Positions 35,928-54,878 are shown, counted from the stretch's first letter. The stretch: DNA of 64,000 nucleotides from Candidatus Magasanikiibacteriota bacterium (GCA_016182085.1 JACOYB010000008.1:10507-74506), one strand, 5' to 3'. Numbers and translations are program-made. Notes: generated by a model not told the origin, from the sequence alone.

Positions 35928-35946
35928 AGCTTAGTATAAATTAAAA

Positions 35947-36051
35947 TAGGTATTGTATTTTGCAACACACCGGAGGCCGATTCGCATCGGCCGAGGTCTG
36001 AAGCGACCAGTCGCCACAGCGACTGGGACGCTGTTTGCAAAAGACAATACC
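35947..36051. ncRNA. Structured element copy A (long outer stem enclosing two hairpins); strand unresolved
   Basis: Outer stem ggtattgtattttgcaa/ttgcaaaagacaatacc, with inner hairpins ggccga-ttcgca-tcggcc and agtcgc-caca-gcgact. The core is about 90% identical to the copy at 54707-54825. Confidence 0.45.
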
Positions 36052-36093
36052 TGTTTTATTTATGTTTGCTAAATATAGCTTCCTCTTTTTAAT

Positions 36094-37059
36094 TTAACTC
36101 AATCTCGCTACAAACAAATCAATAAGCCAAGACTGGTCCGCAAGACCGGTCTTTGTTTTTATATCTATTTCCAAAAGCTGATTATAAATATCTTTTAATT
36201 TATCAAGCGAATATCTTTTAATAAGCGGTAATGATTTTTTTACCACAAACGGATGAAGCCCGAGCATTTTTGCCATCTGGTCGCTGGAAATATTTTCTTC
36301 TCTATTAAATAAATCACGAAGTGAAATAAGAATTCTAAACTGGCGCAAAATCATACTAAATAAATATCCGTCGTCTTGTCCCAAGCGCCTCTGATCTTCA
36401 ATTAGTTTGAACGCCAACTTTTGATTGCCGGCGACGATCGCATCAACCATATTAAAGATATTATCATCGGATTTTTCTTCCAAAAACAACTGTACATCAG
36501 AAAGAGCGATCTCTTTTGTGCCAGCATACGCCACCAGCTGATCAATGAGCGAACTGGCATGCCACATATCGCTCCCCGCGTGCTCTGCCAAATAATTTAA
36601 CGCGGCGGCGGAAATTGTACCACCGCGCGCAACAACTTCATTTTTTATCCAAGAAGTAAGTGCTGCGCCGCTAAGCAATGCAAATTCTTTAGCCCATGTT
36701 GCTTTAGCCAATATTTTATGCAATTCCTGAACGACCTTGGATTTTCCCATTGGCTCGGATTGGTAAAAAATTACAACGTTTTTTTCGGGGATTTTATTCT
36801 CTTTCACTCCTTGGATAAAGGACTCCAGTGTATCTGCATCTTTAGTAGATAAAATATTTTGAATAACTACAAGTCTTTTCTCCGCCAAAAATGGCATGGC
36901 AGTTATTTCATTCCACAAACGGCTGCTTTCTTCCTTTTGCCCATTCAAAATCACCACATTCATGCCTTGCGGGTCTCTTTCTTTTTTAAATCTTTCTATC
37001 TGTAATTTTAGATAGTTGTGGCTGGAAAATGTATCTTCGCCGTAAATATATATAATCAT
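36094..37059 (-). CDS. holA: DNA polymerase III delta subunit
   Basis: N-terminal IYIYGEDTF and the HolA clamp-loader delta fold pattern. The start is moved to the internal Met (MIIYIYG). Confidence 0.75.
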   Translation of the reverse strand: MIIYIYGEDTFSSHNYLKLQIERFKKERDPQGMNVVILNGQKEESSRLWNEITAMPFLAEKRLVVIQNILSTKDADTLESFIQGVKENKIPEKNVVIFYQSEPMGKSKVVQELHKILAKATWAKEFALLSGAALTSWIKNEVVARGGTISAAALNYLAEHAGSDMWHASSLIDQLVAYAGTKEIALSDVQLFLEEKSDDNIFNMVDAIVAGNQKLAFKLIEDQRRLGQDDGYLFSMILRQFRILISLRDLFNREENISSDQMAKMLGLHPFVVKKSLPLIKRYSLDKLKDIYNQLLEIDIKTKTGLADQSWLIDLFVARLS

Positions 37060-37241
37060 AATAATTAGCTTTCCAATAAGCATTACAATTTTAATGCTTA
37101 TCTTCTTTTTTAGCAATATTTTACATTGACAAAATCAAAAAAATATAGTAGTGTGGGTCTCACCCATATATGGTGATTCCTTCGGCGGAACTAATATCCG
37201 CCAGCACCTAACAGGGCTTTTCCCTTCCGAAACGGAGCATC

Positions 37242-37631
37242 ATGAACAACCCCGATCCTTTCGATCCGCCCGATGAACTGGACCAGACGCTGCACGGCGA
37301 CGAGGTGCCGCCGACAACTACGACCAGCGACGAGACTGGCGAAGACGATGAGTCCACGGCCGATACCATGGACCGGAACCGACCCCCGTCCGACGGCTCC
37401 CCGCTTGCAGATGAGGCCGTGTTCATTGAGCTCGGCGAGATCGCCGATGCCATTGACGAGGTGATTGATGACGATCTGAAGTTTGATCGTAATCAGCCCG
37501 TCACCATGAGCGGTCAAATCGGCACTGCCAAGTCCAGTCCGGCCCATGACGCCAGGCTTCACCAATGGAAAGCCATTAACGTGGACGCTTCCATTGGCGG
37601 CGGTACGGATGCGAGTAATCGCCTTCCCTAG
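37242..37631 (+). CDS. Acidic hypothetical protein encoded in a GC-rich island (~60% GC)
   Basis: A GGAG SD sits 6 nt upstream of the ATG. The ORF is highly acidic and low-complexity (DPPDELDQTLHGDEVPPTTTTSDETGEDDEST…), with strong terminators immediately after it. Confidence 0.5.
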   Translation: MNNPDPFDPPDELDQTLHGDEVPPTTTTSDETGEDDESTADTMDRNRPPSDGSPLADEAVFIELGEIADAIDEVIDDDLKFDRNQPVTMSGQIGTAKSSPAHDARLHQWKAINVDASIGGGTDASNRLP

Positions 37632-37650
37632 CGAGGGCGAACAAGGAGAA

Positions 37651-37725
37651 TATGGTAGCTGTTCTGAGGAAACAGAACAGCTACCACCTATAAATTAAAG
37701 CATCGCGCCTCAAGCGCGTTTTTTT
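37651..37725 (+). terminator. Two hairpins, the second a canonical rho-independent terminator
   Basis: gtagctgttctg-aggaaa-cagaacagctac is a perfect 12-bp stem. gcgcctcaagcgcg followed by ttttttt is the second hairpin. Confidence 0.7.
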
Positions 37726-37831
37726 AATGGTCCCAGACCATAGAGGGGTTGACTAACCCCTCAAAATATGGTAAGTTATCTTCGCCCTAGCGACAGCCTG
37801 CAAGGCTTTCCCGCTAGCGCACAGGAACTAC

Positions 37832-37942
37832 ATGCAGAAGAACAACATCGCCAACCCCCGCGGTCGTCCGACCAGCAACACGGAGGCCCTCGTTCATAGC
37901 GATCGCAAGAATCTCGACAACACCGGCGCCGGCGCCAACTGA
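37832..37942 (+). CDS. Small ORF (36 aa) in GC-rich island, SD-preceded
   Basis: AGGA 6 nt before the ATG. The product is MQKNNIANPRGRPTSNTEALVHSDRKNLDNTGAGAN. A TTGACT-N17-TAAGTT promoter-like sequence lies at 37749-37777. Confidence 0.3.
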   Translation: MQKNNIANPRGRPTSNTEALVHSDRKNLDNTGAGAN

Positions 37943-38033
37943 TCCCAGCTCGACGCCGACGACAACGGTCTCGCGACCTGAATCCTCATCCTGAGGAGCC
38001 GGGCCGGGGCCGATCCTCCGCGCTGCGGGAGAG

Positions 38034-38144
38034 CATCATGGAGAACTTCCTGACAACAGGATGTTCCACCTGGCTCAAGCAGCCACCGGAAGGGCGGCGG
38101 CACCAAGTCTTCGGACACGGTGCCGCCGCCCACTCCGTCTATAA
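38034..38144 (+). CDS. Small ORF (36 aa) in GC-rich island, SD-preceded
   Basis: GGAGAG 5 nt before the ATG. The product is MENFLTTGCSTWLKQPPEGRRHQVFGHGAAAHSVYN. Coordinates are approximate. Confidence 0.25.
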   Translation, partial: HHGELPDNRMFHLAQAATGRAAAPSLRTRCRRPLRL

Positions 38145-38202
38145 TTAACTCAGCCATTACTTAGCTCACGCATACCTTGCGGGCTTTTTTTGTTTTATGC
38201 TA

Positions 38203-38219
38203 TACTACACATTGTAGTA
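38203..38219. promoter_or_regulatory. Candidate BlaI-family operator TACTACA-cat-TGTAGTA overlapping the promoter of the repressor gene
   Basis: A perfect palindrome 23 bp upstream of the ATG at 38242. BlaI/MecI/CopY repressors bind TACA/TGTA dyads. Confidence 0.6.
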
Positions 38220-38241
38220 AATTTTTTATCCTAAAAAATAT

Positions 38242-38628
38242 ATGCGATATAACGCTACCACTTCTTCCTTAGGAAGTTTGGAAGAAGAAATCATGCAAAT
38301 AATTTGGAAAGAGCCCGCGGCTTCGGTGCGTTTGGTTTTTGAAAAAATAAAAAAAAGACGCGAGATTGCCTATACTACCGTTATGACCATTATGTCCCGC
38401 TTGCACGCCAAAGGCATACTAAACCGCAAACAAAAAGACGGCGGCGCTTATGTTTACGCCCCGGCGCAAAGCAAAGAAAAATTCTTGGAACAAATTTCCG
38501 AACGGGTAATAAAAAACTTAATAAAAAATTGCGGCGAGGTAGCCGTGGCCAGATTTATAGATATAGTGGAAGCGGGTAATTTTAAAAAATCAGCTCAGTG
38601 GAGAAAAAAACTGAAAAAGATTAAATGA
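38242..38628 (+). CDS. BlaI/MecI/CopY-family winged-helix transcriptional repressor
   Basis: …EEEIMQIIWKEPAASVRLVFEKI…YTTVMTIMSRLHAKGILNRKQKDGGAYVY matches the penicillinase-repressor fold. There is no C-terminal CxCx4CxC motif, so it is not CopY-like. Confidence 0.8.
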   Translation: MRYNATTSSLGSLEEEIMQIIWKEPAASVRLVFEKIKKRREIAYTTVMTIMSRLHAKGILNRKQKDGGAYVYAPAQSKEKFLEQISERVIKNLIKNCGEVAVARFIDIVEAGNFKKSAQWRKKLKKIK

Positions 38629-38643
38629 TTCCGGTTTTAAATT

Positions 38644-39702
38644 ATGATTTTTAACATGCGGCAAAAATCCAACTGGCTGTTTGCTCAAATTATAATCTTG
38701 GGAACGATTATAACTATTCTTATCGCCGGTTTATTTTATAAAATTTATAATTTCACATTCGGCGCTTTAGGCAATATTACTCTAAACCGCATACAAAATG
38801 CTTGCGGCTGCCAAATACCTTCATCCGCCAACAACTCTGTCCTTACGGGGTTTGCTGTTCTGCTGGGATCGGCTATAGTCATATCTTTTATTTTTGCCTT
38901 ATCCAAAATAATTATTTCTTTAATAAAAACCAAAAAATTTATAAGCCTGCAAAAAATAAACTTCGTTAAAAGCTCTAAAAAATTAACCCAGGTAGCGGCC
39001 ACCATCGGCATCCAAAATCAGGTGGTAGAAATAAATACAACCCAACCCCTTATTTTTTGCCACGGACTAAAAAGCGAAAAAATATACATATCATCTACGG
39101 TAGTAAAAGCTTTGAGTTTTGCCCAGTTACAAACAGCTCTGCTACACGAGACCCATCATTTGCTTACAAAAGAGCCGGCTCGATTATTAATCCTAAAACT
39201 CATCGGGGTATTTGGTTTTATCCCGGGCATCAATAGTTTAATAAAAAAATATTTGTCTTTTTCGGAGATCGCGGCCGACGAACTGGCTACAGATAACTTT
39301 AAAGAAAAAAACCATCTGGCCGCGGCTATGGCCAAAATTTTGGAACTGGAAGAAAAAAACATTATCCAAAAAGAGTTAGCCGTATCTTTCTTCAGCCAGA
39401 TGACAGAAGAACGAGTTGTAAATTTAAGCGAAGCTGGTTATAAACCAACATTTAAAACAGAGCTGCTAAAAGCAGCTTTTGGCATAGCTGGTGCAGCTAT
39501 ATTTATTTTATTTTTTAGCTCCAACCTAAATGTTCAACAGTCCAAGGCCCAAGAAATATATACAAAATCCGGCTGCGCCGAACAAATTTATAAAATTGAA
39601 AAATGCCAAAACGGCTGGACAAAATGCGCCGAACAAAATTATCATCAAGAAAAAACCAATTGTCAAAAATCTATCAAATACTTTGATAAGTTAAAAAATT
39701 AA
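38644..39702 (+). CDS. BlaR1/MecR1-like M56-family signal-transducing metalloprotease with a novel Cys-rich C-terminal domain
   Basis: Multiple TM helices, zinc site LLHETHHLLTKEPARL (HExxH), then a C-terminal CAEQIYKIEKCQNGWTKCAEQNYHQEKTNC with four Cys. There is no penicillin-binding domain. Confidence 0.7.
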   Translation: MIFNMRQKSNWLFAQIIILGTIITILIAGLFYKIYNFTFGALGNITLNRIQNACGCQIPSSANNSVLTGFAVLLGSAIVISFIFALSKIIISLIKTKKFISLQKINFVKSSKKLTQVAATIGIQNQVVEINTTQPLIFCHGLKSEKIYISSTVVKALSFAQLQTALLHETHHLLTKEPARLLILKLIGVFGFIPGINSLIKKYLSFSEIAADELATDNFKEKNHLAAAMAKILELEEKNIIQKELAVSFFSQMTEERVVNLSEAGYKPTFKTELLKAAFGIAGAAIFILFFSSNLNVQQSKAQEIYTKSGCAEQIYKIEKCQNGWTKCAEQNYHQEKTNCQKSIKYFDKLKN

Positions 39703-39776
39703 TTACTTGCCTGCAGGGTAGTGAGTTTAACTCTACTGCCCTGTGGATAAATAAATTTTACAATTAAAGCCATACC

Positions 39777-39793
39777 TACTACAATATGTAGTA
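39777..39793. promoter_or_regulatory. Second candidate BlaI-family operator TACTACA-ata-TGTAGTA
   Basis: A perfect dyad 20 bp upstream of the ATG at 39813. Confidence 0.55.
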
Positions 39794-39812
39794 ATAAATA
39801 ATTATATCACTT

Positions 39813-40562
39813 ATGCAAATAAACAAAGGCTGGTTAAAAAATAATCTAAACACGCTTCTCCTGGTGCTGCTTACCGTTTCGGTGGCTTCCAACCAGTTTA
39901 TCTTGGCAAAAACACAAAAAGTAGTCGGTATAAAAAATAATACCGCTCTCAGCTCTCTTACCGTGCGATTCCAAAAAATTATTAAGGGCGGCGTGGGTCT
40001 TTCCGGAAATCTGGGCGAAGATGCGGTAAAATTGGCCTTTATACAGGGCATACCGGAGGTATACGGCGCTGAATTAAATGTTAATTTTGACCAGCCGGCA
40101 GAATCAATGGGGGCGCTCAAACAATTTGATCTGGGTTATGGAAGAAATAAGCCCGACCTTTCCGCAGAAGAAAAAAAGCGATATACGGATATAAACTTGA
40201 AAATTTCTTGCGAATTTTGCTGTGGAGCAAAGGCGATAGTTTTTGAAAATGGCGAACCTTCCTGCGGCTGCGCCCATTCGCAGGCCATGAGAGGACTAAC
40301 TGCTTATTTAATAAAAAACCATGGGACCGAATATTCCGATGATCAAATTTTAAGAGAGCTGGCCAGTTGGAAAAGCCGCTGGTATCCAAAACAGATGGTG
40401 CAAAAAATGTCGGACCAATTAAAAAGCGGCAGCTACACCCCAGATATTGCCTCCTTGCTTCTGGATGTAAAATTGCCAAAATACGATGGAGCCGCCCACA
40501 GCGGAGCCGCGCCTTTGCCATCAGACATACAAAACGCGCCTAGTATGGTAGGCGGATGCTAG
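39813..40562 (+). CDS. Membrane-anchored Cys-rich protein with C-terminal PSMVGGC tag
   Basis: N-terminal TM, then CEFCCGAKAIVFENGEPSCGCAHS. The C-terminus is …AHSGAAPLPSDIQNAPSMVGGC. Confidence 0.6.
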   Translation: MQINKGWLKNNLNTLLLVLLTVSVASNQFILAKTQKVVGIKNNTALSSLTVRFQKIIKGGVGLSGNLGEDAVKLAFIQGIPEVYGAELNVNFDQPAESMGALKQFDLGYGRNKPDLSAEEKKRYTDINLKISCEFCCGAKAIVFENGEPSCGCAHSQAMRGLTAYLIKNHGTEYSDDQILRELASWKSRWYPKQMVQKMSDQLKSGSYTPDIASLLLDVKLPKYDGAAHSGAAPLPSDIQNAPSMVGGC

Positions 40563-40633
40563 ATTGAAAGTTAAAAGTTTAAAGTAGAAAGTTATAAAGT
40601 TAAAAAATAAAATTATTTAATAAATATAATTAT

Positions 40634-40900
40634 ATGGATGAACAAAAAAATTCCAGCGGGCTGGAATCTATAAAAAACGAAATTATCACTAAACTAAACG
40701 ACCAAAATAAAAAATCTTTGTCTTGGAATAATATGGTGGTAACGGCCGTTTTAGCGGTACTGACCATTGTCTCTCTTTCGCAAATGGCCGCTTCTATTAC
40801 TATTTTTAACAAACTAAAAACCGGCGATGTCCAAGCCGCTTCCGGAGCGCCTCAAAATAACTCTCTGCAAAGCTTGCCGGATATGGTGGGCGGATGCTAA
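40634..40900 (+). CDS. Small membrane protein with C-terminal PDMVGGC tag (paralogous tail to the previous gene)
   Basis: One TM (VVTAVLAVLTIVSL). The C-terminus is …AASGAPQNNSLQSLPDMVGGC. The DNA for the two tails is also near-identical (atggtaggcggatgcta versus atggtgggcggatgcta). Confidence 0.55.
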   Translation: MDEQKNSSGLESIKNEIITKLNDQNKKSLSWNNMVVTAVLAVLTIVSLSQMAASITIFNKLKTGDVQAASGAPQNNSLQSLPDMVGGC

Positions 40901-41742
40901 ATCGTATGAATGAACAACAAAACAATTTAAAAGTTAATTACTGGTTTTTAATGGCTGCTTCCGGGTTTATACTTATTGGCGGCATTGTTTCTACCGCGTT
41001 CTTCTTAAAAACCAACTCTCTGGCGAACAAAAATATCACGGCCGCAACCGAAACCAAACGTCCGGCTAATTTGGAATGGATAGCTATTCTAGACGAATCT
41101 TGCAAAGATTGTTTTGATATAAATCCGGTCTTTGATTACCTTAAAAAAGAAAATGTAAATTTTACTTCTCAAAAAAATCTGGATAAAAACAGCGAGGAAG
41201 GCAAAAATTTAATTGAAAAATATTCCATAAAAAAACTACCGACCTTTATTCTAAAGGGCGAGCTGCAAAAAAACTCCGTCCTGGCCCAATTTTTTTCTAA
41301 AACCGGAGATACCGAAGAAAACACTTTTGTTTTTAGGCAAGTAGGCGCTCCATATAGTTTAGCTGCTACTGGAGAAGTAAAGGGCCAAGTAAACTTTACC
41401 ATGATTACTGACACTTCCTGTACCGAGTGCTATGACGTAACCCAACACGAAATAATTTTACAGCAGTTTGGTATTGCGAGTCCGGGCACCGTAATTGATG
41501 CCAAATCCGCGGCTGGCCAAGCGCTCATTAAAAAATATAGAATAACTCTTGTACCAACATTTATTCTATCCGGAGACATGAACGAGTATCCAAGTCTTAA
41601 GCCGGTCTGGGCACAGGTTGGCGTGATAGCCAGTGATGGCACGTATGTATTTACCTCTGGCACGCCATTTATGGGAACATACAAAAACCTAACGACCAAC
41701 AAAGTAATTTCTCCTCCGGTTCAAAATAGTTCACAGCAATAA
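40894..41742 (+). CDS. Membrane-anchored tandem thioredoxin-fold protein with two CxxC motifs
   Basis: N-terminal TM. Domain 1 has CKDC with a cis-Pro motif KLPTFIL. Domain 2 has CTEC with LVPTFIL. Confidence 0.65.
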   Translation: MLNRMNEQQNNLKVNYWFLMAASGFILIGGIVSTAFFLKTNSLANKNITAATETKRPANLEWIAILDESCKDCFDINPVFDYLKKENVNFTSQKNLDKNSEEGKNLIEKYSIKKLPTFILKGELQKNSVLAQFFSKTGDTEENTFVFRQVGAPYSLAATGEVKGQVNFTMITDTSCTECYDVTQHEIILQQFGIASPGTVIDAKSAAGQALIKKYRITLVPTFILSGDMNEYPSLKPVWAQVGVIASDGTYVFTSGTPFMGTYKNLTTNKVISPPVQNSSQQ

Positions 41743-41743
41743 T

Positions 41744-42208
41744 ATGCTTAAAAACATTGCCCTAATAATACTAGTTGCAGGCGCAGCCACGGCCATGGTC
41801 TGGGCTATCATAAAACAGCCCTCGGCCACAACAGTTTCTCCGGCCACCGAAAATTACACTATATCTAAAACCGGCATCCATTATCATCCAAAGTTGGATA
41901 TTTATATCAAAGGCCAGTTGCAAACTATTCCGACTAATATTGGCATAGGCGCGGTGCACCTGCCAATACATACTCACGCGGCAGATCATATAATTCACTT
42001 GGAATTCTCTCGGTTAGTAACTCTGGACGATACAAGACTGCAGGAATTCTTCAAAATCTGGAATAAAAAATTTGACGCTAATTGTATTTTTGATAATTGC
42101 AATGGACCAAGCGGAACGGTAAAAATGTTTGTCAACGGCCAGCCGAATAGTGAGTTTGAAAAATACCCAATGAAAAATGATGATAGAATTGAAATTCGCT
42201 ACGAATAA
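41744..42208 (+). CDS. Membrane-anchored His-rich protein (possible metal-binding)
   Basis: N-terminal TM, then GIHYHPKLDIY…AVHLPIHTHAADHIIHLEF. No recognised domain. Confidence 0.55.
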   Translation: MLKNIALIILVAGAATAMVWAIIKQPSATTVSPATENYTISKTGIHYHPKLDIYIKGQLQTIPTNIGIGAVHLPIHTHAADHIIHLEFSRLVTLDDTRLQEFFKIWNKKFDANCIFDNCNGPSGTVKMFVNGQPNSEFEKYPMKNDDRIEIRYE

Positions 42209-42213
42209 CTTGC

Positions 42214-42411
42214 ATGATTAAAGAAATAACTATTCCAATTTTAAAAAGAAAAAAATACGCTCTTGTTGCCCTAGCCGCGGCTATTATAATGGCTGGCCTT
42301 TCTTATTACCTCACGATTGTTAATGTGGCCTTTCACAGTTTTTTTGTTCTTATCCAAATGGACGGCTGGGCCTTTACCACCGTTTCCTTAGGGCTTTCTT
42401 TGATTATTTAG
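42214..42411 (+). CDS. Small two-TM membrane protein
   Basis: 65 aa, hydrophobic, the last gene of the co-directional cluster. Confidence 0.35.
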   Translation: MIKEITIPILKRKKYALVALAAAIIMAGLSYYLTIVNVAFHSFFVLIQMDGWAFTTVSLGLSLII

Positions 42412-43671
42412 CATGAATTTGGCGGAGTCGCTGATTTTGAATCCTGCCTTTACTAACTCTGCCTCCAGTTGTTTGGCAGTTTTACCGCCGATCTCTACGG
42501 TTCCACGGCGGATTTTGCCTTCGGGGAACCAAAACTCGGAATAAATATGATTGATTATATCGGGTAGGGTTTTAAAAATACCAGGATACAAGGGGCCGAT
42601 ATATATTTTGGTACCTCTGTTTACTTCATTTTCTTTTTGCGCTATTTCCTCCGGTTTCACTTTAATGCCAATAAAAATTTGTGCGATTTTGGCAACATCT
42701 ATTTTGGACAACCCTTCCAGTGGCATGGCGCCCGCTTTTAAATACGGGGATTCGGTATTCGGGTTAAAATCTCGATAATGCACCTCGCCATTTTCAGTTA
42801 AAAGATGCTGGTCTTTGACTTCAATATCATCGAGTTCGTCGGGTGAAATATTGGAAAAATCTCTCGGTTCGCCAGTGTCAGTGGTAGTTTTTCCAACTTG
42901 CTTTATAACGCCAAACAAATCAAGGCCTGCAATATCTTGATTGGTAATCAAATCATCATTGGCTTTTTTTATTTGTATAACTATCTTGTTTTTTGGATCA
43001 TATTCAATAGTCAAAATCGGACTGTCTCCTTCCAGCTCACCCATTTGACCTAGTTTTTCATTAAATACGGGCACGGTACGCAGAGAAAATATCTCAATTT
43101 CACCTCTCTTCATTCTGTTTATATACGAATCACTCGTGCCAACACAGTGCCCCATATAATCAGATTCTTTTTCTAAATGCGGCATATTAAGAAGTTTGGC
43201 CAGATAAAATTTGCCGGAATTAGTGGTAAAAAAAGCCTCGTACGGATTAAGTTCTTGGTTGCCGGTAATTTCGGCGCGTCGTTTGCGTATCTCGGCAATT
43301 TTATACAGGGTTTTTTGTTCGTGAATTTTAAGCAAACGATGCAATCCGCCTTTTTCAATAGAAATAAAATTTGGCGTTTCAATAATGGCATCAAAAAGAG
43401 TATTTTCATCAACAGTGTTTTCTCTCTGAAAATATCGCGCTAATTTTAATTTTAAAATTGCCTGTTCTTGCTCGCCAAATAAAAACCCTTCCTGTCTGGA
43501 AAGACGCGCTTGCAAAGTATTAAAAGCAGCGGAAATAAGAGGTTCTTTTTGCGAACGTACATCTTCCGAAAAGATGGCGAGAGTATCTTGGTATAATTTT
43601 TCTACACTCGCTTTAGCGGGGCTGGCTGCTTCGGCTTTGGCATAGTCGTGCCGGATTCTTTCTGGGGTCAT
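42388..43671 (-). CDS. Hypothetical protein (427 aa)
   Basis: A long ORF with coding-like composition and no recognised motifs. Confidence 0.5.
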   Translation of the reverse strand: MTPERIRHDYAKAEAASPAKASVEKLYQDTLAIFSEDVRSQKEPLISAAFNTLQARLSRQEGFLFGEQEQAILKLKLARYFQRENTVDENTLFDAIIETPNFISIEKGGLHRLLKIHEQKTLYKIAEIRKRRAEITGNQELNPYEAFFTTNSGKFYLAKLLNMPHLEKESDYMGHCVGTSDSYINRMKRGEIEIFSLRTVPVFNEKLGQMGELEGDSPILTIEYDPKNKIVIQIKKANDDLITNQDIAGLDLFGVIKQVGKTTTDTGEPRDFSNISPDELDDIEVKDQHLLTENGEVHYRDFNPNTESPYLKAGAMPLEGLSKIDVAKIAQIFIGIKVKPEEIAQKENEVNRGTKIYIGPLYPGIFKTLPDIINHIYSEFWFPEGKIRRGTVEIGGKTAKQLEAELVKAGFKISDSAKFMLNNQRKP

Positions 43672-43782
43672 ATTTAATAGTGGTTTATTTAAATATTAAG
43701 AGAGGGATCCTTCAATTCGCTCAGCTCGCTCAGAGCCTGCCCCGAGCTTGTCGAAGGGATGACGCAACATGCGAACATTGCG

Positions 43783-46506
43783 TCACTTCATTTCGCCCCA
43801 GCTGCGATTGATGCTCAACCCAACTTTTACCGGTACGCGCAGAGTAACCACATTTTCCATTATATTTTTTACAAGATTGGCCACTTCTTCGGCCAATTCT
43901 TTTTTTACTTCCAAAACCAATTCATCATGCACCTGCAAAAGTATTTTTGGGCAATTGTCATTCCCGCCAAAGCGGGAATCCAGTCGATTGAATACTGGAT
44001 CCCCGTTTTTACGGGGATGGCAAAAAGCATCCTTGATGCCTTTTGCCACTTCTATCATGGCCATCTTCATCAAGTCGGCAGCCGTGCCCTGAATAGGATG
44101 ATTTACAGCCATACGTTCGGCAGCGGCGCGCATCTGAAAATTAGACGCATTTAATTCCGGCAAATAACGTCTGCGGCCAAACAGAGTTTCGCAATATCCT
44201 TCTTTTTTTGTAAATTCCAATGTCCGATCTATATATTCCCGCACTCCGCTAAACGCTTCAAAATATTTTTTAATAAAATCTCTGGCTTCAAATTGGGAAA
44301 TGCCGGCACGCCAGCTTAGTCCATACGAACCCATGCCATAGAGCACGCCAAAATTTACTTCTTTGGCCGCATAACGCATCTCTTTGGTAACTTCCGATAA
44401 TGGCACATTGTTTATAGCGGCGGCGGTGGCCTTATGAATATCTTCATCTTTATTAAAAATCTCTATCATGCGTTTATCTTGGGCCAGCGAGGCTACAATA
44501 CGCAATTCAATCTGCGAATAATCGGCGCTTACCAGAGTGTTTCCCGGTTCGGCTATAAAGGCTTTGCGTATTTCCCGTCCCAATTCACTGCGGATAGGAA
44601 TGTTTTGTAAATTTGGATCCAAACTAGACAAGCGTCCGGTAGCCGCCACCGTCTGATTAAAATGAGAATGAATTCTACCGGTTTTTTTGTTTACCAAATC
44701 CGGCAAAACATCTATGTAGGTATTTTGCAGTTTGGCTAATTCGCGATAAGCAGAAATCTCTTCTATTATTGGATGCAAGCCATGTAATTTTTCCAGTTCT
44801 TCGGCCGAAGTAGATAGGCCCGTCTTGCCTTTTTTTATACCGGCTGCAGACAAGTCTAATTTATCAAATAAAACTTCCCGCAGCTGAACTGGTGAAGCGA
44901 TATTAAATTCCATGCCGGCCAGTTTATAAATCTTTTTGGTTAATTTTTCCAAACTCTCTTTCGCTTCCACAGATAATTTCTTAAACATCGCTTTGTCTAC
45001 CGCAATACCGTTTAATTCCATCTCGGCCAAAACATATTCTAGCTGCATTTCCATTTTTTGAAACAAACCAAAATTACCGGCTTTTTCCAAATCGGTTTTT
45101 AATTTTTCTTTGGCCTGATTTATCAAAAATAATTCCTCGGCCAGACTCTTTTTATCTATGCCAAACAAACTTGTCTGGGCCGTATTTTGTGGCAAAATCT
45201 TACCCAAAACTTTTAGTAATATGCTGGTAATATCGTGCGCTCTGGTACCGGAGCTAAGCAGATACGAAGCTACCATCACATCAAACAGTGCATTTTCCGG
45301 CACTACATTAAAATTGTATTGCAAAGCTTTTATAAGCTCCTTTAGGTCATGCCCCACCAACTCTATATCTTTATCGGCAAACAACGGTAAAACTTTTTTT
45401 GTTATTTTGGCATCAACAAAAAATACTTGATGGCCCACAACAATCATAAGCCCCAGAAATTCGCTGTCCAAAACTTCTTTACCGCTTAACACCGCCCGAC
45501 AAGCAAACGATTTTTTCTCCTTTACTAATTTAAATAATTTTTCCAATTCACTTTCTTTGTCTATTTCAGAAAAAATCATCTTCTCGGTGTTTTTATGCTT
45601 CTCTGTTTTTTCTTCCTCTGCTTGAAACCCTGGTATTCTTTTTAATAATGAAACAAATTCAAACTTTTGAAACAGATGACTTATTTTTTCTTTATCAAAT
45701 TCACCAATTTCACAATGTTTAAAATCAAATTTCAGATCCGGCACATCGCAATCTATAGTAGAAAGTTCTTTACTCATCTTGGCGCTGTCTTCTCCTTCTA
45801 CCAGCTTGGCAATTACGCCCGGTTTTAATTCCTTAGCAATTTTTTCTCTGTTTTTTAATTGTTTGTAGATATTTTCTACACTGCCAAATTTTAAAATTAA
45901 TTCCAAAGCGGTTTTTTCGCCAATGCCGGGCACGCCGGGAATGTTATCTGAAGCATCACCGCGCAAAGCTTTGTAATCAATCATTTTTTCCGGCCCAAAC
46001 CCAAACCTGGCTTTTACGCCCGCCACATCATAAATCACAATATCGCTTATGCCTTTTCGCAAGGTGTAAACTTTTACATTATCGCGTACCAGCTGCAGAG
46101 TATCCATATCGCCGGTAACGATAAACACTTCTGCATCTTTCTTTTTTTCAAAATGTTTGGCAATGGTGCCGATTACATCATCAGCTTCGTAGCCTTTTTT
46201 TTCATAAATCGGCAAACCAAAAGCTTCTACCACTTCGTGTACCAAGGGAATTTGGTCGTATAGTGCCTGGTCGGCTTTTACGCGAGTGGCTTTATACTCT
46301 TTGTACTGCACATGCCGGAATGTCGGCCCGGCCATATCAAAAGTAACGGCAATACAGTCCGGTTTTAAATCTTTCCAAACTTTGAGCAGCATGGAAGTAA
46401 ATCCATACACAGCATTTACCATAACTCCGTCTTTGGTAGTAAGCGGAGGGATAGCATGGTACGCGCGATGGATAATGGCATTACCGTCAAAAATAACAAG
46501 TTTTTG
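43783..46506 (-). CDS. polA: DNA polymerase I (5'-3' exonuclease plus polymerase domains)
   Basis: The N-terminus (FDGNAIIHRAYHA…) marks the 5'-nuclease domain. Polymerase motifs are …RRAAKEVNFGVLYGMGSYGLS… and QVHDELVLEV. The start is trimmed to the internal Met because the upstream stretch overlaps tRNA-Cys. Confidence 0.9.
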   Translation of the reverse strand, partial: QKLVIFDGNAIIHRAYHAIPPLTTKDGVMVNAVYGFTSMLLKVWKDLKPDCIAVTFDMAGPTFRHVQYKEYKATRVKADQALYDQIPLVHEVVEAFGLPIYEKKGYEADDVIGTIAKHFEKKKDAEVFIVTGDMDTLQLVRDNVKVYTLRKGISDIVIYDVAGVKARFGFGPEKMIDYKALRGDASDNIPGVPGIGEKTALELILKFGSVENIYKQLKNREKIAKELKPGVIAKLVEGEDSAKMSKELSTIDCDVPDLKFDFKHCEIGEFDKEKISHLFQKFEFVSLLKRIPGFQAEEEKTEKHKNTEKMIFSEIDKESELEKLFKLVKEKKSFACRAVLSGKEVLDSEFLGLMIVVGHQVFFVDAKITKKVLPLFADKDIELVGHDLKELIKALQYNFNVVPENALFDVMVASYLLSSGTRAHDITSILLKVLGKILPQNTAQTSLFGIDKKSLAEELFLINQAKEKLKTDLEKAGNFGLFQKMEMQLEYVLAEMELNGIAVDKAMFKKLSVEAKESLEKLTKKIYKLAGMEFNIASPVQLREVLFDKLDLSAAGIKKGKTGLSTSAEELEKLHGLHPIIEEISAYRELAKLQNTYIDVLPDLVNKKTGRIHSHFNQTVAATGRLSSLDPNLQNIPIRSELGREIRKAFIAEPGNTLVSADYSQIELRIVASLAQDKRMIEIFNKDEDIHKATAAAINNVPLSEVTKEMRYAAKEVNFGVLYGMGSYGLSWRAGISQFEARDFIKKYFEAFSGVREYIDRTLEFTKKEGYCETLFGRRRYLPELNASNFQMRAAAERMAVNHPIQGTAADLMKMAMIEVAKGIKDAFCHPRKNGDPVFNRLDSRFGGNDNCPKILLQVHDELVLEVKKELAEEVANLVKNIMENVVTLRVPVKVGLSINRSWGEMK
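43956..44030. repeat. GTCATTCCC…GGGAATC palindromic-unit repeat located inside the polA reading frame
   Basis: gtcattcccgccaaagcgggaatccagtcga… is almost identical to the intergenic copies at 54231 and 50652. On the minus strand it reads in frame as [21 protein letters not shown], inserted just before motif C (QVHDEL). Confidence 0.6.
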
Positions 46507-46542
46507 CATATAGTTTGAGGTGCCGGCCAAAAATGAGTATTG

Positions 46543-46614
46543 AGGTCGGGATGGGAATCGCACCCACGCATAAGAGTTTTGCAGACTCCTGCCTTACTGC
46601 TTGGCTACCCGACC
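46543..46614 (-). tRNA. tRNA-Cys (anticodon GCA)
   Basis: Reverse complement GGTCGGGTAGCCAAGCAGTAAGGCAGGAGTCTGCAAAACTCTTATGCGTGGGTGCGATTCCCATCCCGACCT. Acceptor GGTCGGG/CCCGACC and anticodon loop CTGCAAA fit, but the D-loop and T-loop (TGCGATT) are atypical. Confidence 0.6.
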
Positions 46615-46662
46615 ATGGAAGTGATAAAACAATATCACTTCACGCCTATTTTTTCAACCCCT

Positions 46663-47979: not shown

Positions 47980-48124
47980 ACAGCTTGACGTAGAACGTAT
48001 CTTAACATATCATACTGTTTAAAACAACCGACCGGTATGTTCCGGTTAATGCCTAATTACAGCCATTATACCAACCGTTTTTCATCAAAATTTATCGTTT
48101 TAATCATTTTTAACTTAGGAATCT

Positions 48125-50110: not shown

Positions 50111-50126
50111 AATTTTACATTAACTT

Positions 50127-50190
50127 ACTGTCATCCTGAACTTGTTTCAGGATCTAAAAGAAGGTTACTAAACACGACCTTCTTTTTGTT
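50127..50190 (+). terminator. Palindromic unit plus rho-independent terminator after hppA
   Basis: atcctgaa-cttgtt-tcaggat is a repeat-family unit also found at 61795. It is followed by aagaaggt…accttct and tttttgtt. Confidence 0.6.
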
Positions 50191-50263
50191 AATTAAAAAA
50201 GTCCCGGGCAGAAACTTGTTCTGCGACAGGACTTGGACCGTGGTAACCGAGGTACGCGCCGAG

Positions 50264-50518
50264 CTACCTCGCCAGGTTTCTCTCATGCTCCTCCTTGGTC
50301 ATGCACCCGCATTCGCCTCGCTTACACTCCTCCTTGTAGGCAGAACGCAACCGATTGGCGAGATCCTGGAGACACGTTGGACACTCCTGGACGGGAATGC
50401 CCAAGGCGTCGAGGAAACCGTCCTTCTCGCGCTGAATGCACTGCTTCTCCAGATCGCTTCCGGGTTGTGCCGTGTGCACATGACCGGACGGACATTGAAC
50501 ATTGTATTTGGTCTCCAT
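50264..50518 (-). CDS. Cys-rich small protein (84 aa) in a GC-rich island
   Basis: METKYNVQCPSGH…CPTC…C..GECGC contains seven Cys. A minus-strand TTGACT-N17-TAGACT promoter at 50538-50565 and a GGGGA SD precede it. A terminator hairpin plus T6 lies at 50195-50236. Confidence 0.55.
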   Translation of the reverse strand: METKYNVQCPSGHVHTAQPGSDLEKQCIQREKDGFLDALGIPVQECPTCLQDLANRLRSAYKEECKRGECGCMTKEEHERNLAR

Positions 50519-50651
50519 GGATTCCCCTTTGAAACGAGTCTAGCATAAAATATCTCTAAAGTCAATGTATCCCGTATCTAAACATGATTACCCGTTGCCT
50601 TGACATTTTACTATTTTTCCATTAAAATTAGCGGGTAATAAACTCATTTTT

Positions 50652-50800
50652 GTCATTCCCGCCACAAGCGGGAATCCAAACAATTAATTGTACACTGAAT
50701 TCCCAATCAAGCCTGCCTGTAGGCAGACAGGTTGGGATGACAGACAGAGATCCCTCGTCATCCCGAGTACTCGGGACTCGCTCGGGATGACAAATCCGCG
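50652..50800. repeat. Cluster of about 4 palindromic units of the GTCATCC…GGATGAC family
   Basis: The units are gtcattcccgccacaagcgggaatcc, gggatgac…gtcatccc and gtcatcccgag-tactcgggactcg-ctcgggatgac. Confidence 0.65.
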
Positions 50801-50833
50801 TAATCCACACTTTAAATCTGTGTAATCAATAAT

Positions 50834-52120
50834 ATGAAATACGAACTCAAAACCATAGAAAAATCCCAAGTGGAACTAACCATTACCGTGGAACCAAATG
50901 ATTATAAAAAGAATCTTGAAGACGCGGCTGTGCGCATTTCTGAGCGGGCCGCTATTGCCGGTTTCCGCCCGGGCAAAGCCCCTTATGACAAAGTAAAACA
51001 ACAGGTCGGTGAAATCCGCATTATTGAAGAAGCTATGCAGAGCATTGTGGAAAAGAATTTTTTCCACGCTGCCAAAGAAGCCAAAATTGATACGGTGGGT
51101 ATGCCGCAAATTACCATCACCAAAATCGCTCCGGGCAATGACTTGGTTTTCACTGCCACTGTGGCCTTACTCCCTAAAATTACCTTGGGTGATTTGGCAA
51201 CTGTAAAAGTAAAACATCAAGCCAAGGAAATTACTGATGCTGAAGTTGATACGGTTTTAAACGATTTGAAAAAAATGCAGACCAAAGAAATTCTTAAATC
51301 CGGCCCGGCTGCCAAAGAAGACAAACTGATAGTAAACCTGGAAATGTTTTTGGACAAAGTTCCGGTTGAAGGCGGACAAGCTCCAAACCACCAAGTATAC
51401 TTAAACGAACCCCACTATATTCCCGGCCTCGCCGAACAACTGATCGGCCTGCAAAAAGATGATACCAAAGAATTTTCTTTGAAATTTCCCAAAGATCATT
51501 ACCAAAAACATTTAGCTGGCAAAGACACGGATTTTAAAGTAAGAGTAAACGATGTGTTTGAATTGCAATACCCGGAACTTAATGACGAGTTTGCCAAATC
51601 TTTGGGTCAAAAAAACATGGAAAAACTAAAAAATATCATTAAAGAAAACTTGGTTCAGGAAGCTAAACAAAAAGACGACCAAAAAATTGAAATAGAAATT
51701 TTGGATCAAATGATTGAAGCGAGCGCTATTTCCGAAATTCCAGATGTGCTTATTAACACCGAAAAGAATAAAATCTTCCAGGAACTTAAACGCAGTTTGG
51801 AAACCCAGGGCATTGAAATGGAAAAATACCTAAATGACTTAAAGAAAACCGAAGAGGATATTTATAAGGACTTCACCGAGCAAGCTACTCGTCGTGTTAA
51901 AGCCGCGCTGGTTTCTCGCCAAGTAGCTTTGGATAATAATATCAAAGCTGAAAAAACGGATATTGATGAAGAGGTAAAACAAATTAAAGCCGCTTATCCG
52001 GATAATAAAAATGTGGAAGAGAACCTAAAAAAACCGGAAGTAATTGACACCTTGGCTCTCACTATACAGAATAGAAAAGTAATGGCTTGGCTAAAGGAAA
52101 AAATTGCGGGGGAAAAATAA
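50834..52120 (+). CDS. tig: Trigger factor
   Basis: The N-terminal ribosome-binding domain (MKYELKTIEKSQVELTITVEP…AGFRPGKAPYDKV) and overall length match Tig. Confidence 0.9.
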   Translation: MKYELKTIEKSQVELTITVEPNDYKKNLEDAAVRISERAAIAGFRPGKAPYDKVKQQVGEIRIIEEAMQSIVEKNFFHAAKEAKIDTVGMPQITITKIAPGNDLVFTATVALLPKITLGDLATVKVKHQAKEITDAEVDTVLNDLKKMQTKEILKSGPAAKEDKLIVNLEMFLDKVPVEGGQAPNHQVYLNEPHYIPGLAEQLIGLQKDDTKEFSLKFPKDHYQKHLAGKDTDFKVRVNDVFELQYPELNDEFAKSLGQKNMEKLKNIIKENLVQEAKQKDDQKIEIEILDQMIEASAISEIPDVLINTEKNKIFQELKRSLETQGIEMEKYLNDLKKTEEDIYKDFTEQATRRVKAALVSRQVALDNNIKAEKTDIDEEVKQIKAAYPDNKNVEENLKKPEVIDTLALTIQNRKVMAWLKEKIAGEK

Positions 52121-52204
52121 AGGCACTATATTTACTTCTATAAAAAAATAATATACCATTACCTGGTATATTATTTTTTAACTGTCATTTTAATACTTTA
52201 ACGT

Positions 52205-53050
52205 ATGTACTTCGGCGCGCACGTCTCTATTGCCGGCGGACTGCCCAATGCCCCTATTAACGCGGCTGCAATCGGCTGTGAGGTTTTTCAGATGTTTTCC
52301 CGCTCTCCCCGTGGCGGCTGGGTAGCTCCGCTAGACAAAAAAATTGCCAAGCAATTTAAAGATAACTGCAAAGCCAATAACCAAAAAGAGTGGTATATTC
52401 ACGCGCCCTACTTTATCAATTTTGCTTCTATAAATCCCAAAATAAAATACGGATCTGTATCTGTCTTAAAGCAAGAATTGGAACGCGGCTCCATGCTCGG
52501 CGCTACCTATGTTATGACCCACCTGGGCAGTTATAAAGATGTGGGAAAAGAGGAAGGATATAAACAGTTGGCCGAGGGATTAGAACAAGTAATGAAAGGA
52601 TACAAAGGCTCAACTCAATTTTTAATTGAAATTTCTGCCGGCGCAGGCACGGTTATTGGCGATACATTTGATGAAGTTGGCAAAGCATTGCACCATAAAA
52701 AAATAGAAAAATATAATATTGGTGTTTGTTACGATACACAGCATGCGTTTGCCAGCGGCTATGATTGCCGCACTCCAGAGGTTTTTAAAAAAACATTAAA
52801 CGAGTTTGATAAATACATTGGGCTGGACAGGCTAAAAATGTTCCACTGCAACGACTCCAAGACTGAGCTGGGTTCTCATAAAGATAGGCATGAACATATC
52901 GGCAAAGGCAATATCGGCTTAGCCGGTTTTAAAACTATTTTATCCGACAAAAGATTACAAAATATAAACTTCATTGCCGAAACCGAACATGATGAAATTG
53001 TGGAGGATTTAAAAATCCTCAAAAAAATAAGACAGAAATCCCTGAACTAA
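52205..53050 (+). CDS. nfo: Endonuclease IV (AP endonuclease family 2)
   Basis: MYFGAHVSIAGG…HAPYFINFAS…VMTHLGS…GVCYDTQHAFASGYD…HCNDSK…HEHIGKG are the metal-ligand motifs of Nfo. Confidence 0.9.
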   Translation: MYFGAHVSIAGGLPNAPINAAAIGCEVFQMFSRSPRGGWVAPLDKKIAKQFKDNCKANNQKEWYIHAPYFINFASINPKIKYGSVSVLKQELERGSMLGATYVMTHLGSYKDVGKEEGYKQLAEGLEQVMKGYKGSTQFLIEISAGAGTVIGDTFDEVGKALHHKKIEKYNIGVCYDTQHAFASGYDCRTPEVFKKTLNEFDKYIGLDRLKMFHCNDSKTELGSHKDRHEHIGKGNIGLAGFKTILSDKRLQNINFIAETEHDEIVEDLKILKKIRQKSLN

Positions 53051-53716
53051 TTATTGCCTCAAATTTCTCGCAGTAGCCTTATATGCTTTATTTAATATTT
53101 GAAATAAATAATTAACACCGGCTACATAATTTCCGCCATCAGCAGCATTCAAAGCGTCCAAATATTTATCCTTGTTTTTATTTATAATAGAATTTATCAT
53201 AACTGGGTATGTCAATTCTGACAGGTGCTCAAAGCGTAAAACCAAGCACATTAATAATCTTGCCATTTTACCATTTCCATCAGTAAATGGATGGATTATA
53301 ACGAACTTATGGTGAATATACCAAGCAATAAATAATTTAATAGTTAATTCCCTATCAATCTTTTTTGTTGGTTTATTTACTACATATTTCAAAAATGCTT
53401 TTTTATACATTGGCGCCCATCTACGCTTATTATTAATAAATTCAATTAAATTTAAAATCTCGGCTTGTATAAGCCACGGCTCACTTGGATTAAAAGTTTT
53501 TCCCTCTATTTTCAATTCGTGCAAAGCTGTTCTGTATTTTCCTGCTTCCTTTATATTGTGCGCTAAAAGAATTTTATGTATGCCTAGAAAAAAACTCCCT
53601 GGTAATTGGAGTTTTTTTCGTTCAATTTTATCAAGCTGCCCTGCGGCTGCTGAAGTAGCACGCCGAAGATCATTTATTTTGCGCCGCATGCTTGGTATCA
53701 TATTTAACATGGGCAA
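53051..53716 (-). CDS. Fic/Doc (Fido) family protein
   Basis: The Fic motif HPFTDGNGKMARLLM, matching HPFx[DE]GNG[RK], is present. Confidence 0.8.
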   Translation of the reverse strand: MPMLNMIPSMRRKINDLRRATSAAAGQLDKIERKKLQLPGSFFLGIHKILLAHNIKEAGKYRTALHELKIEGKTFNPSEPWLIQAEILNLIEFINNKRRWAPMYKKAFLKYVVNKPTKKIDRELTIKLFIAWYIHHKFVIIHPFTDGNGKMARLLMCLVLRFEHLSELTYPVMINSIINKNKDKYLDALNAADGGNYVAGVNYLFQILNKAYKATARNLRQ

Positions 53717-53895
53717 AATTTATGTTTTTCTTCTATTTCTACTGAGCTTTGACTTTCTGCGTCAATCAACCTATTAGTTATTTCCTTTCTATCATTCTCG
53801 TTTAATTTTTTGAATTCGCCAAAAGAATCCCTATATATTCTTATAGCACCATGCAAGCCCTTTAGTTGTTTTGTATCAATTTTTAATTTTTTCAT
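53704..53895 (-). CDS. Small ORF (63 aa) overlapping the Fic start by 13 nt, a possible antitoxin-like partner
   Basis: It overlaps the Fic gene and is charged, helical and ends …HKFCPC. There is no clear [ST]xxxE[GN] inhibitory motif. Confidence 0.35.
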   Translation of the reverse strand: MKKLKIDTKQLKGLHGAIRIYRDSFGEFKKLNENDRKEITNRLIDAESQSSVEIEEKHKFCPC

Positions 53896-53953
53896 ACTAT
53901 ATCACCTTACAGTTATTATATTACTATAAAAAATCTAATTTTGCAACCTACTT

Positions 53954-54226
53954 TTACGGAAGATCCTCTCCACCCTTACCCCATGGATTACAACGCAAAA
54001 TCCTCCAAGCTGCCTTAAAACCGCCTACCACTAGGCCGTTTTTTTTTATTGTTTGGTAGCCATACTCGCTGCAAGTGGGATAAAACCGGCAATACCCATA
54101 AGGAAACGCCCGTTTAAATAGGCCGTGGTCAGGAGAAATAGTTTTTTGATAAAGTTTTATTAATAATAAAATAGGCATTCTTGGCAGAAATAAGAGAAAA
54201 TTTATTATTCTTTTAATCATAATCAT
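53954..54226 (-). CDS. yidD: Membrane protein insertion efficiency factor YidD
   Basis: …[61 protein letters not shown] is the YidD signature. The start is trimmed out of the upstream palindrome. Confidence 0.8.
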
Positions 54227-54229
54227 CTT

Positions 54230-54296
54230 TGTCATTCCCGCCAAAGCGGGAATCTAGTCGACAATTGTCTGGATTCCCGCTTTGGCGGGAATGACA
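54230..54296. repeat. 67-bp near-perfect palindrome made of two inverted GTCATTCCCGCCAAAGCGGGAATC units
   Basis: tgtcattcccgccaaagcgggaatc-tagtcgacaattgtctg-gattcccgctttggcgggaatgaca lies between rnpA and yidD. Confidence 0.8.
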
Positions 54297-54302
54297 ATAA
54301 AA

Positions 54303-54698
54303 CTAAACTTTTAAAACCTTCGCTTTAGATAATAATACTTTTATTTCTTGGCTAATCTCTGGGTAATTTTTATTCAAAATATCTTTTTTTGCTACCACAA
54401 GTATATAGTAGCCATTTTTTATGGCCCCATCCTTAATTAACAGCCGAACAGCCTCACGGATCTGTCTGCGAACTCGGTTGCGCTTCACGGCGCTTTTATG
54501 CACTTTTAATCCCGTAGAAATTGCTAGCTTTAGCTGATTTTTAAAACTTTCCGGATCCTCTTTTTTTGGAAAAAAGTTTTGATTTTTGGCTAATTCTAGG
54601 GCCTTTATATCCAAAAACTGGCCATTTACCCAGCGACCATGCTTTAAAATTAAATTAAAATCCCTAACTTTTCTTAAACGATTGTCTTGTTGCAGCAT
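54303..54698 (-). CDS. rnpA: RNase P protein component
   Basis: The RNR motif KSAVKRNRVRRQIREA is present, in rpmH-rnpA-yidD context. Confidence 0.85.
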   Translation of the reverse strand: MLQQDNRLRKVRDFNLILKHGRWVNGQFLDIKALELAKNQNFFPKKEDPESFKNQLKLAISTGLKVHKSAVKRNRVRRQIREAVRLLIKDGAIKNGYYILVVAKKDILNKNYPEISQEIKVLLSKAKVLKV

Positions 54699-54706
54699 AA
54701 TAAAAA

Positions 54707-54825
54707 TATTATATCAGGATACCACCTTTTTGTCTTGGCAACACACCGCGGGCCAATTCGCATCGGCCGAGGTCTGAAGCGGCCAATCGCCACAGCGATT
54801 GGAACGCTGTTTGCCGAGATAAATA
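54707..54825. ncRNA. Structured element copy B, in the rpmH-rnpA intergenic spacer
   Basis: Outer stem ggataccacct…aggtggtatc. The core gcaacacaccgcgggccaattcgcatcggccgaggtctgaagcggccaatcgccacagcgattggaacgctgtttgc is homologous to copy A. It carries a compensatory change in hairpin 2 (aatcgc/gcgatt versus agtcgc/gcgact). Confidence 0.5.
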
Positions 54826-54878
54826 GGTGGTATCTAAATTAAACATAAAACCCGCGTTTCTAGCGGGTTTTATGTTTA

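Follow-up and report, generated by a model that had tools for sequence, protein, structure and literature searches.

A small structured repeat at gene ends in Candidatus Magasanikbacteria, with a conserved three-way-junction core and locus-specific closing stems

Two copies of a branched repeat in the window

The DNA analysed here, referred to as the window, is a 64,000-nucleotide (64-kb) stretch from a Candidatus Magasanikiibacteriota bacterium (GCA_016182085.1, JACOYB010000008.1:10507-74506), and it carries two copies, A and B, of a small structured repeat. Homologues of its RnpA place the host in Candidatus Magasanikbacteria, within the Candidate Phyla Radiation (CPR)/Patescibacteria lineage. 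Copy A lies between the convergent genes rpsT (ribosomal protein S20, PF01649; 35682-35927, + strand) and holA (DNA polymerase III delta; 36094-37116, - strand, with an uncertain start codon). Copy B is found between rpmH (ribosomal protein L34; 54880-55059, - strand; the orthologue has PF00468), which is upstream of it, and rnpA (54303-54698, - strand), which is downstream, at a site that adjoins dnaA. These gene and domain assignments bear out the placement of both copies in an initial annotation of the window, made from the sequence alone, and only the limits of the copies had to be redrawn. With its full stem, copy A extends over 35943-36057 instead of 35947-36051 and is divided on the + strand into a 5' arm (35943-35963), a core (35964-36036) and a 3' arm (36037-36057). 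Copy B occupies 54717-54834, about 10 nt further to the right than the 54707-54825 first given, with its 5' arm at 54717-54739, a 73-nt core at 54740-54812 and its 3' arm at 54813-54834. Both elements are delimited by their sequence, their fold and a covariance-model match on the - strand (103 bits for copy A and 96.6 bits for copy B), and no strand is assigned to either of them.

At the sequence level, the 26-mer ATTCGCATCGGCCGAGGTCTGAAGCG occurs exactly twice in the window, at 35980 and 54756 and both times on the + strand, the chance expectation being zero (100 shuffles). A repeat search delivers the same relationship as an 80-nt pair (35959-36038 and 54735-54814, family D14) of 90% identity, and the 73-nt cores taken by themselves are also 90% identical, which is the level of similarity that the initial annotation had stated. 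No third copy is present in the window according to either pattern search or covariance model. Each copy folds as a long stem topped by two G+C-rich hairpins, with folding z-scores, on either strand, of -6 to -9 relative to dinucleotide shuffles (about -8 to -9 for copy A). The core of copy A, G+C-rich and 73 nt long, comprises the hairpins P2 and P3 plus the junction, and reads AAACAGC...UUCAGACCUCG...GCGA...CGGUGUGUU on the - strand. The closing stems are A+T-rich and mutually unrelated in sequence, each of them being self-complementary, and that of copy A is prolonged on both sides by an A-tract and a T-tract. The base-pairing details that had been noticed earlier are all there: the outer helices that differ and stay complementary (ggtattgt/acaatacc in copy A, ggataccacct/aggtggtatc in copy B), the compensatory swap in hairpin 2 (agtcgc/gcgact in copy A versus aatcgc/gcgatt in copy B) and the hairpin-1 mismatch of copy B (GGCCAAT/ATCGGCC), an A.C when the + strand is read and a G.U when the - strand is.

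Two further elements surround copy B. The intrinsic terminator hairpin of rpmH (AAAACCCGC-loop-GCGGGUUUU; 54841-54877, - strand) stands between rpmH and copy B and is separate from the repeat. On the other side there is a promoter-like site of rnpA (54708-54736, - strand) composed of a -35-like AAGACA, 17 nt and TG-n-TATAAT, with 10 of 12 matches and an extended -10, whose -35-like AAGACA sits within the 3' proximal arm of copy B. A matching AAGACA-17 nt-TATACT arrangement can be read in the related genome L014.

Further copies and their common fold

To extend the comparison beyond the window, the orthologous rpmH-rnpA spacers of relatives were retrieved via RnpA homologues. The site is filled by a homologous element in the closest relative (L012, RnpA 93% identical) and in L013-L018 (RnpA about 84%), and these elements display the architecture seen in the window with a different sequence in every helix. 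The pattern shared across relatives, defined on the window - strand by the motifs AAACAGC, UUCAGAYCUCG and CGRUGUGUU, retrieved four loci from the JGI metagenomes, two of them at new sites (after ndk and after rnpA-yidD); an earlier pattern of the window type had given 0 matches in the same collection. A covariance model built from 7 copies then found 10 distinct copies and no other match in 315 kb, adding the two copies that follow yidD and polA in L012 and a single one in L031. The initial annotation had proposed such a covariance-model search for homologues in related genomes and metagenomes, and eight copies beyond the window were recovered in all. The ten distinct copies occupy seven loci of five kinds, namely rpmH-rnpA, the yidD 3' end, the polA 3' end, ndk-gpsA and holA/rpsT. 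All seven loci are gene 3' ends or intergenic spacers; the yidD site is filled in three genomes, and in L012 an arm of the element overlaps the yidD stop codon. The 64 kb of the window contain 2 copies, and the L012/L029 genome has 3 within about 28 kb.

Searches in other collections were negative. In viral contigs, the 17-mer GGCCGAGGTCTGAAGCG gave 7 matches, all to unrelated G+C-rich sequence and taken as chance, and the family pattern gave 0 matches. Among GTDB species genomes, GCAACACACCG..GGTCTGAAGCG, which represents the core type of the window only, matched just two coding-like stretches of Natronomonas, also by chance, and plasmid and phage collections contained no match to the repeat.

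The complete unit is about 125 nt long. Its centre is a G+C-rich core of 73-77 nt in which two hairpins meet at a three-way junction, followed outwards by a proximal stem of about 10 bp, semi-conserved (UAUCUUUGGC / GCCAAAGACAA on the window - strand), in which an A.C mismatch recurs, and by a distal stem of 10-15 bp that is A+T-rich and locus-specific and that an A-tract and a T-tract, one on each side, usually extend. Among copies, the distal arms are 46-71% identical, which corresponds to the background level for A+T-rich DNA. All ten copies have the three-way-junction fold in common, and about 40 core positions are invariant, including unpaired bases of the junction and the internal loops. 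In a hand-made structural alignment, checked base for base against the source sequences, 91.5% of cells are in standard pairs and 28 of 42 pairs have changed on both sides; in the controls, 0 of 500 shuffles reach any of five measures and partners slid by 1-3 columns pair in 34-44%. The model-made alignment yields similar values (93.8% of cells paired, 29 of 43 pairs changed on both sides). Both alignments were fitted to the structure and hence lean toward it, yet the distance from the controls is very large. Even copies of one genome differ from each other by compensatory changes.

With the eight additional copies the covariation is far stronger than the two copies of the window could provide, and the contention that the pair is not a chance palindrome stands. 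The window sequences recur in an independent Logan assembly of run SRR12113430, and homologous copies exist in NCBI, ENA and JGI assemblies of other genomes. Together with a chance expectation of zero matches, this refutes the explanation of the repeat as a fortuitous pair of palindromes or an assembly artefact. A small protein encoded across the core was also considered and rejected: read from the sequences, the open frames are not conserved between the two core types, whose lengths differ by 3 nt with a shift in content.

The cores and the arms appear to have followed different histories. Between copy B and its positional orthologue in L012, core identity is no higher than 66%, whereas the neighbouring rnpA DNA is 93% identical, and the core of L014 at the rpmH-rnpA site is 96% identical to that of L025 at the ndk site; cores are more similar within a genome than between orthologous sites. 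The arms at the copy B site in the window and L014 are recognisably orthologous, with a common insertion point and a shared TACCA...ATTTATCT, and those of the yidD site in L012 and L027 are orthologous with compensated differences. From these sequence comparisons we infer that gene conversion or re-copying causes the cores of one genome to be exchanged or overwritten, and that the arms evolve at their own sites.

Filled and empty sites, strand signals and interpretation

Gain or loss is seen at the copy A site. In L029 the stop codons of holA and rpsT overlap as TTAA, and a second relative has a 0-nt gap between the two genes, against a holA-rpsT spacer of 166 nt in the window. The extra DNA that is missing from the holA/rpsT junction of the relatives measures 160 nt (35934-36093), is flanked by TAA on both sides when read on the - strand (36094-36096 and 35931-35933) and reaches, on the holA side only, about 32 nt past the palindrome. 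Four relatives (L019-L021, L022, L024 and L030) lack the element at the rpmH-rnpA site and have just the rpmH terminator and the TATAAT box there; the RnpA of the empty-site L030 is 91% identical to that of the filled L014. This site is compatible with a TTT(T) duplication, its boundary being ambiguous. Conversely, L012 carries copies after yidD and polA and the window has a copy at neither place, nor could a remnant of the polA 3' copy be found in the window (42190-42400 and 43600-43850). In five related genomes, searched over 93 kb with filters off, no core-bearing copy was detected, the model matches there being limited to ordinary A/T-extended terminator hairpins. The idea that the element inserts into the loop of a terminator already in place was also considered. 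It is rejected for site A, whose empty counterpart in relatives has overlapping stops and no hairpin, and the yidD site lends it no support, the natural terminator found there (AAAAATACACC...) bearing no relation to the arms of the element.

Some additional observations concern these same sites. About 10 nt outside copy A, inside the DNA that relatives lack, ATGTTTGCTAAA (36062-36073; TTTAGCAAACAT on the - strand) resembles UUUUGCAAACAG, the sequence at which the stem of the element passes into the start of the core. The rpmH-rnpA spacer of L031 (9858-9945) harbours a different G+C-rich structured insert at the place that copy B takes in the window; on its opposite strand AAACAGC is directly followed by UUUCAG and GCGAG, it receives no covariance-model score, and from these motifs it could be a degenerate, inverted relative of the repeat. 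After polA, the window has a hairpin of its own (GACGCAA...TTGCGTC) and, on the same strand, an open reading frame (ORF) of 427 aa with no Pfam match (42388-43671), in the place of which L012 carries the element together with a 160-aa gene in convergent orientation. Between yidD and the AP-endonuclease gene, the window has a Fic-domain gene and a small ORF (53051-53895), both absent from that position in L012, L014 and L031.

Several features of the copies carry information on strand. At every locus, a gene on the window - strand ends just upstream of the element. A T-tract follows the stem on the - strand at 6 of 7 loci and on the + strand at 3 of 7, with none at rpmH-rnpA. Read on the - strand, the P3 loop is GCGA, of GNRA type, in 10 of 10 copies, and the P2 loops include UUCG or UGCG in two. 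As for mismatches, the arms contain on that same strand 10 A.C and 0 G.U, that is, wobble pairs on the + strand, and the core is about even; the copies at the copy B site hold most of the arm mismatches. By way of control, the wobble pair is on the sense strand in each of 5 natural terminators that lie between co-directional genes. A mutational or simple replication bias was rejected as the cause of the A.C excess, since all hairpins genome-wide, taken on the leading strand (43 G.T versus 34 A.C), tend the opposite way. The GC skew locates the origin near 56-58 kb, so that all placed copies share one orientation both relative to replication and relative to genes, and the two are inseparable here. 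In the neighbouring rpmH terminator, the loop is exactly inverted between the window (TAGAAAC, 54841-54877) and L012 (GTTTCTA, about 1870-1905) with unchanged stems, which shows that hairpin template-switching operates in these genomes. Template-switching can yield compensatory changes in a DNA palindrome with no selection on RNA, and compensatory change in a DNA palindrome is, by itself, no proof of such selection.

The designation of structured mobile element fits the repeat best because orthologous sites are either filled or empty, because the five kinds of gene end are unrelated and because the distribution is patchy. The initial annotation had offered a choice between a functional RNA and a structured mobile element, and it is the latter that these observations favour. 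We consider it probable, if only moderately so, that the repeat is a non-autonomous, insertion-polymorphic mobile or duplicating structured element which forms terminator-like hairpins in a patchy subset of the sampled Magasanikbacteria. New copies are found at or just after stop codons, and arms and core thereafter keep pairing by compensatory change; the cores would be homogenised or overwritten within the genome. Once inserted, the unit would become the terminal part of the transcripts of one or more neighbouring genes and may serve, or be tolerated, as a large hairpin of terminator-like or transcript-end type; in the rpmH-rnpA spacer, rnpA may in addition receive its -35-like box from the arm. 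The ribosome- and RNase P-related surroundings of copies A and B, to which the initial annotation had attached meaning, are incidental, as other copies follow ndk, polA and yidD and the rpmH-rnpA site is empty in the four relatives listed above. On the same grounds, a leader or regulator of rnpA, or a ribosomal-protein or RNase P leader, was rejected.

A number of observations weigh against a mobile, terminator-like element. Genes for a transposase, a reverse transcriptase or an integrase are absent from the window, which leaves the repeat with no mobilising enzyme there, and likewise from the fetched loci of relatives beside the copies. Sites A and B have unlike insert ends and the arms vary from copy to copy, so a classical transposon with fixed termini is not supported. 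The possible target duplication (TAA) derives from a single clean filled/empty pair, the other comparisons being of presence and absence only, and the sample itself is small (10 copies from about five genome types, all near the replication origin or unplaced). The strand signals read from the sequences are in conflict, with T-tracts and GCGA, UUCG and UGCG loops favouring the - strand and arm wobbles favouring the + strand; given that terminators carry wobbles on the sense strand, the arms at rpmH-rnpA are unlike a sense-strand terminator stem. Moreover, copy B is situated between a real terminator and the -10 box of rnpA, where a sense transcript is not expected.

Some of these signals would be accommodated if the repeat were a structured non-coding RNA, either a cis-acting 3'-end module or a small RNA with a partner, whose fold is selected and whose copies are paralogous RNA genes spread by duplication. 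The very strong covariation in all helices, the set of invariant core positions that includes unpaired ones, the GCGA loop of all ten copies together with the UUCG or UGCG of two, all on one strand, and the arm mismatches nearly all of one wobble type, as a single-strand signature, point in that direction, and at site B the + strand reads through the element and then into the bidirectional rpmH terminator with its U-tract, which is the layout of a small RNA gene. The weight of the covariation is lowered by the template-switching documented in the inverted rpmH loop, and no conserved promoter accompanies the copies, the genes adjoining them share no function and the strand signals disagree with one another. 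The element is also absent from many close relatives and orthologous sites, which would be unusual for an RNA that is needed, and we regard this explanation as rather unlikely. The mismatch asymmetry, being a single-strand property, could also be explained by single-stranded DNA, and a slightly more doubtful explanation is that of an element acting at the DNA level, whose single-stranded or cruciform hairpins would be the substrate of a recombinase or transposase encoded elsewhere (HUH/Y1, as in the REP-RAYT system discussed below or in IS200/IS605 derivatives) or of template-switching, transcription being irrelevant. Miniature elements derived from IS200/IS605 carry left-end and right-end hairpins, which the two different hairpins of the core may resemble. 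The co-orientation of all placed copies with respect to replication (GC skew, dnaA), the homogenised cores and the active template switching in the neighbouring hairpin would fit as well. That co-orientation is, however, inseparable from orientation to genes at these loci, and the lagging-strand template expected to be single-stranded is the window - strand, precisely the one with the destabilising A.C mismatches. No HUH, RAYT or other transposase was found in the window or in the fetched loci beside copies, the insert ends are not conserved and no fixed target tetranucleotide is seen.

A more speculative scenario, which we hold to be improbable, makes the three-way-junction core an active RNA module (a protein docking site, or a catalytic or self-priming fold) that spreads via an RNA intermediate, transcript 3' ends consisting of stem, core and U-tract being copied back into A/T-rich sites beside stop codons. 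It would explain at once the one-sided extra sequence, the unconserved insert ends, the locus-specific stems and the genome-wide homogenisation of cores and, if true, would make the repeat a "retro-mobile terminator" of bacteria whose genomes are very small.

Known repeat families and other features of the window

At gathering thresholds, Rfam 15 recognises only 5 tRNAs in the whole window. The comparison of both copies with Rfam that the initial annotation had recommended retrieved, at E up to 10, only sub-threshold matches, mostly to the rpmH terminator hairpin, and no family matches either copy. Self-cleaving ribozymes (hammerhead, twister, twister-sister, pistol, hatchet and hepatitis delta virus-like) gave no match on either strand at E up to 10, and the hammerhead core is not matched by the junction strands, which read AC, (A)UU and none in the sequences. 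A literature search found no description of such repeats in CPR/Patescibacteria.

The closest parallels are with mobile repeats of other bacteria. In the repetitive extragenic palindromic (REP) sequences, the stems are the conserved part of the repeat. REPs and the BIME and REPIN arrangements that they form in Proteobacteria, mobilised by RAYT, resemble the Magasanikbacteria repeat in being short, non-coding, palindromic and multicopy, at gene 3' ends and with a patchy distribution. One published account describes REPs as imperfect palindromes of 20-40 bp, most of them with a GTAG or CGTC tag at one end, and mentions hypothesised roles in transcription termination and mRNA stabilisation (PMC3733652). 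The Magasanikbacteria unit differs from them in its length of about 125 nt, its branched shape with two hairpins on a long stem and its variable outer stem. Its size and the lack of a tag set it outside the definition of REP or REPIN: no conserved GTAG or CGTC is seen on reading the aligned copies. No RAYT/Y1 transposase is present in the window or the fetched flanks of the copies. Repeats of the type of miniature inverted-repeat transposable elements (MITEs), such as Correia/CREE in Neisseria, ERIC/IRU in enterobacteria, RUP and BOX in pneumococcus and the Rickettsia palindromic elements, fold as long RNA hairpins if co-transcribed and may have promoter or terminator activity. They are likewise non-coding, 100-150 bp long and insertion-polymorphic between strains, and they carry a short duplication at the insertion, to which the TAA on both sides of the extra DNA at site A may correspond. 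The repeat agrees with MITEs in being small, non-coding and present in several copies and differs from them in its conservation, as in MITEs the terminal inverted repeats are conserved and the interior is freer, whereas in the repeat it is the interior that is conserved, between terminal stems that change from locus to locus. There are no common terminal inverted repeats, only about 10 bp beside the core being semi-conserved.

Outside bacteria, fungal mitochondria contain double-hairpin elements with compensatory base changes. The G+C-rich hairpin clusters of yeast mitochondria are mobile and intergenic in an A+T-rich genome (PMC4478555). Such elements are similar to the repeat as mobile, G+C-rich modules of one or two hairpins in A+T-rich intergenic DNA and differ from it in being organellar and shorter, with neither a long locus-specific closing stem nor any sequence relationship. 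Intrinsic terminators share with the repeat, at most of its loci, the succession of A-tract, stem and T-tract straight after stop codons, often between convergent genes, and in these genomes natural terminators, too, take the form of long A/T-extended palindromes. They differ in having a loop of 3-8 nt in place of the conserved 73-nt three-way junction, and the stem of the repeat is A+T-rich next to the T-tract; a simple terminator scan did not call the element sites. The repeat is best described as a previously undescribed small family that is gained and lost at gene ends and that, by analogy, would work most like REP/BIME and MITE-type elements such as Correia and ERIC. Its inside-out design, in which a conserved branched core is closed by a locus-specific stem, appears to be new.

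The relevance of the repeat lies in the small, streamlined genomes of CPR/Patescibacteria, in which a strongly covarying three-way-junction fold that is outside Rfam is gained or lost between close relatives with an architecture outside the standard definitions of MITE and REP. It also serves as a warning, as RNA discovery based on covariation will flag such elements as RNA genes when palindrome repair and mobility can give an equal signal. If the core were recognised by a specific enzyme or active as RNA, it would open a way to study how these uncultivated bacteria make and exchange gene ends and terminators.

Several other features of the window deserve mention. On the - strand, an ORF of 3812 aa (16126-27564) contains a great many repeats of 129 nt and 153 nt, both tandem and dispersed (families D1-D13). 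At 40530-40564 and 40868-40902, the ends of two adjacent ORFs with no Pfam matches carry a 35-nt direct repeat, CAAAACGCGCCTAGTATGGTAGGCGGATGCTAGAT, of 77% identity, and a weaker third copy is located at 26794. A free-standing LAGLIDADG endonuclease gene is present at 31922-32287; the syntenic region of L029 and the P0127 contig also has one, near which the P0127 contig bears an IS1595-type transposase. Finally, a gene cluster for a type IV pilus or type II secretion, with a PilB-like ATPase, a PilC-like protein and PilM, extends over 4639-9732.

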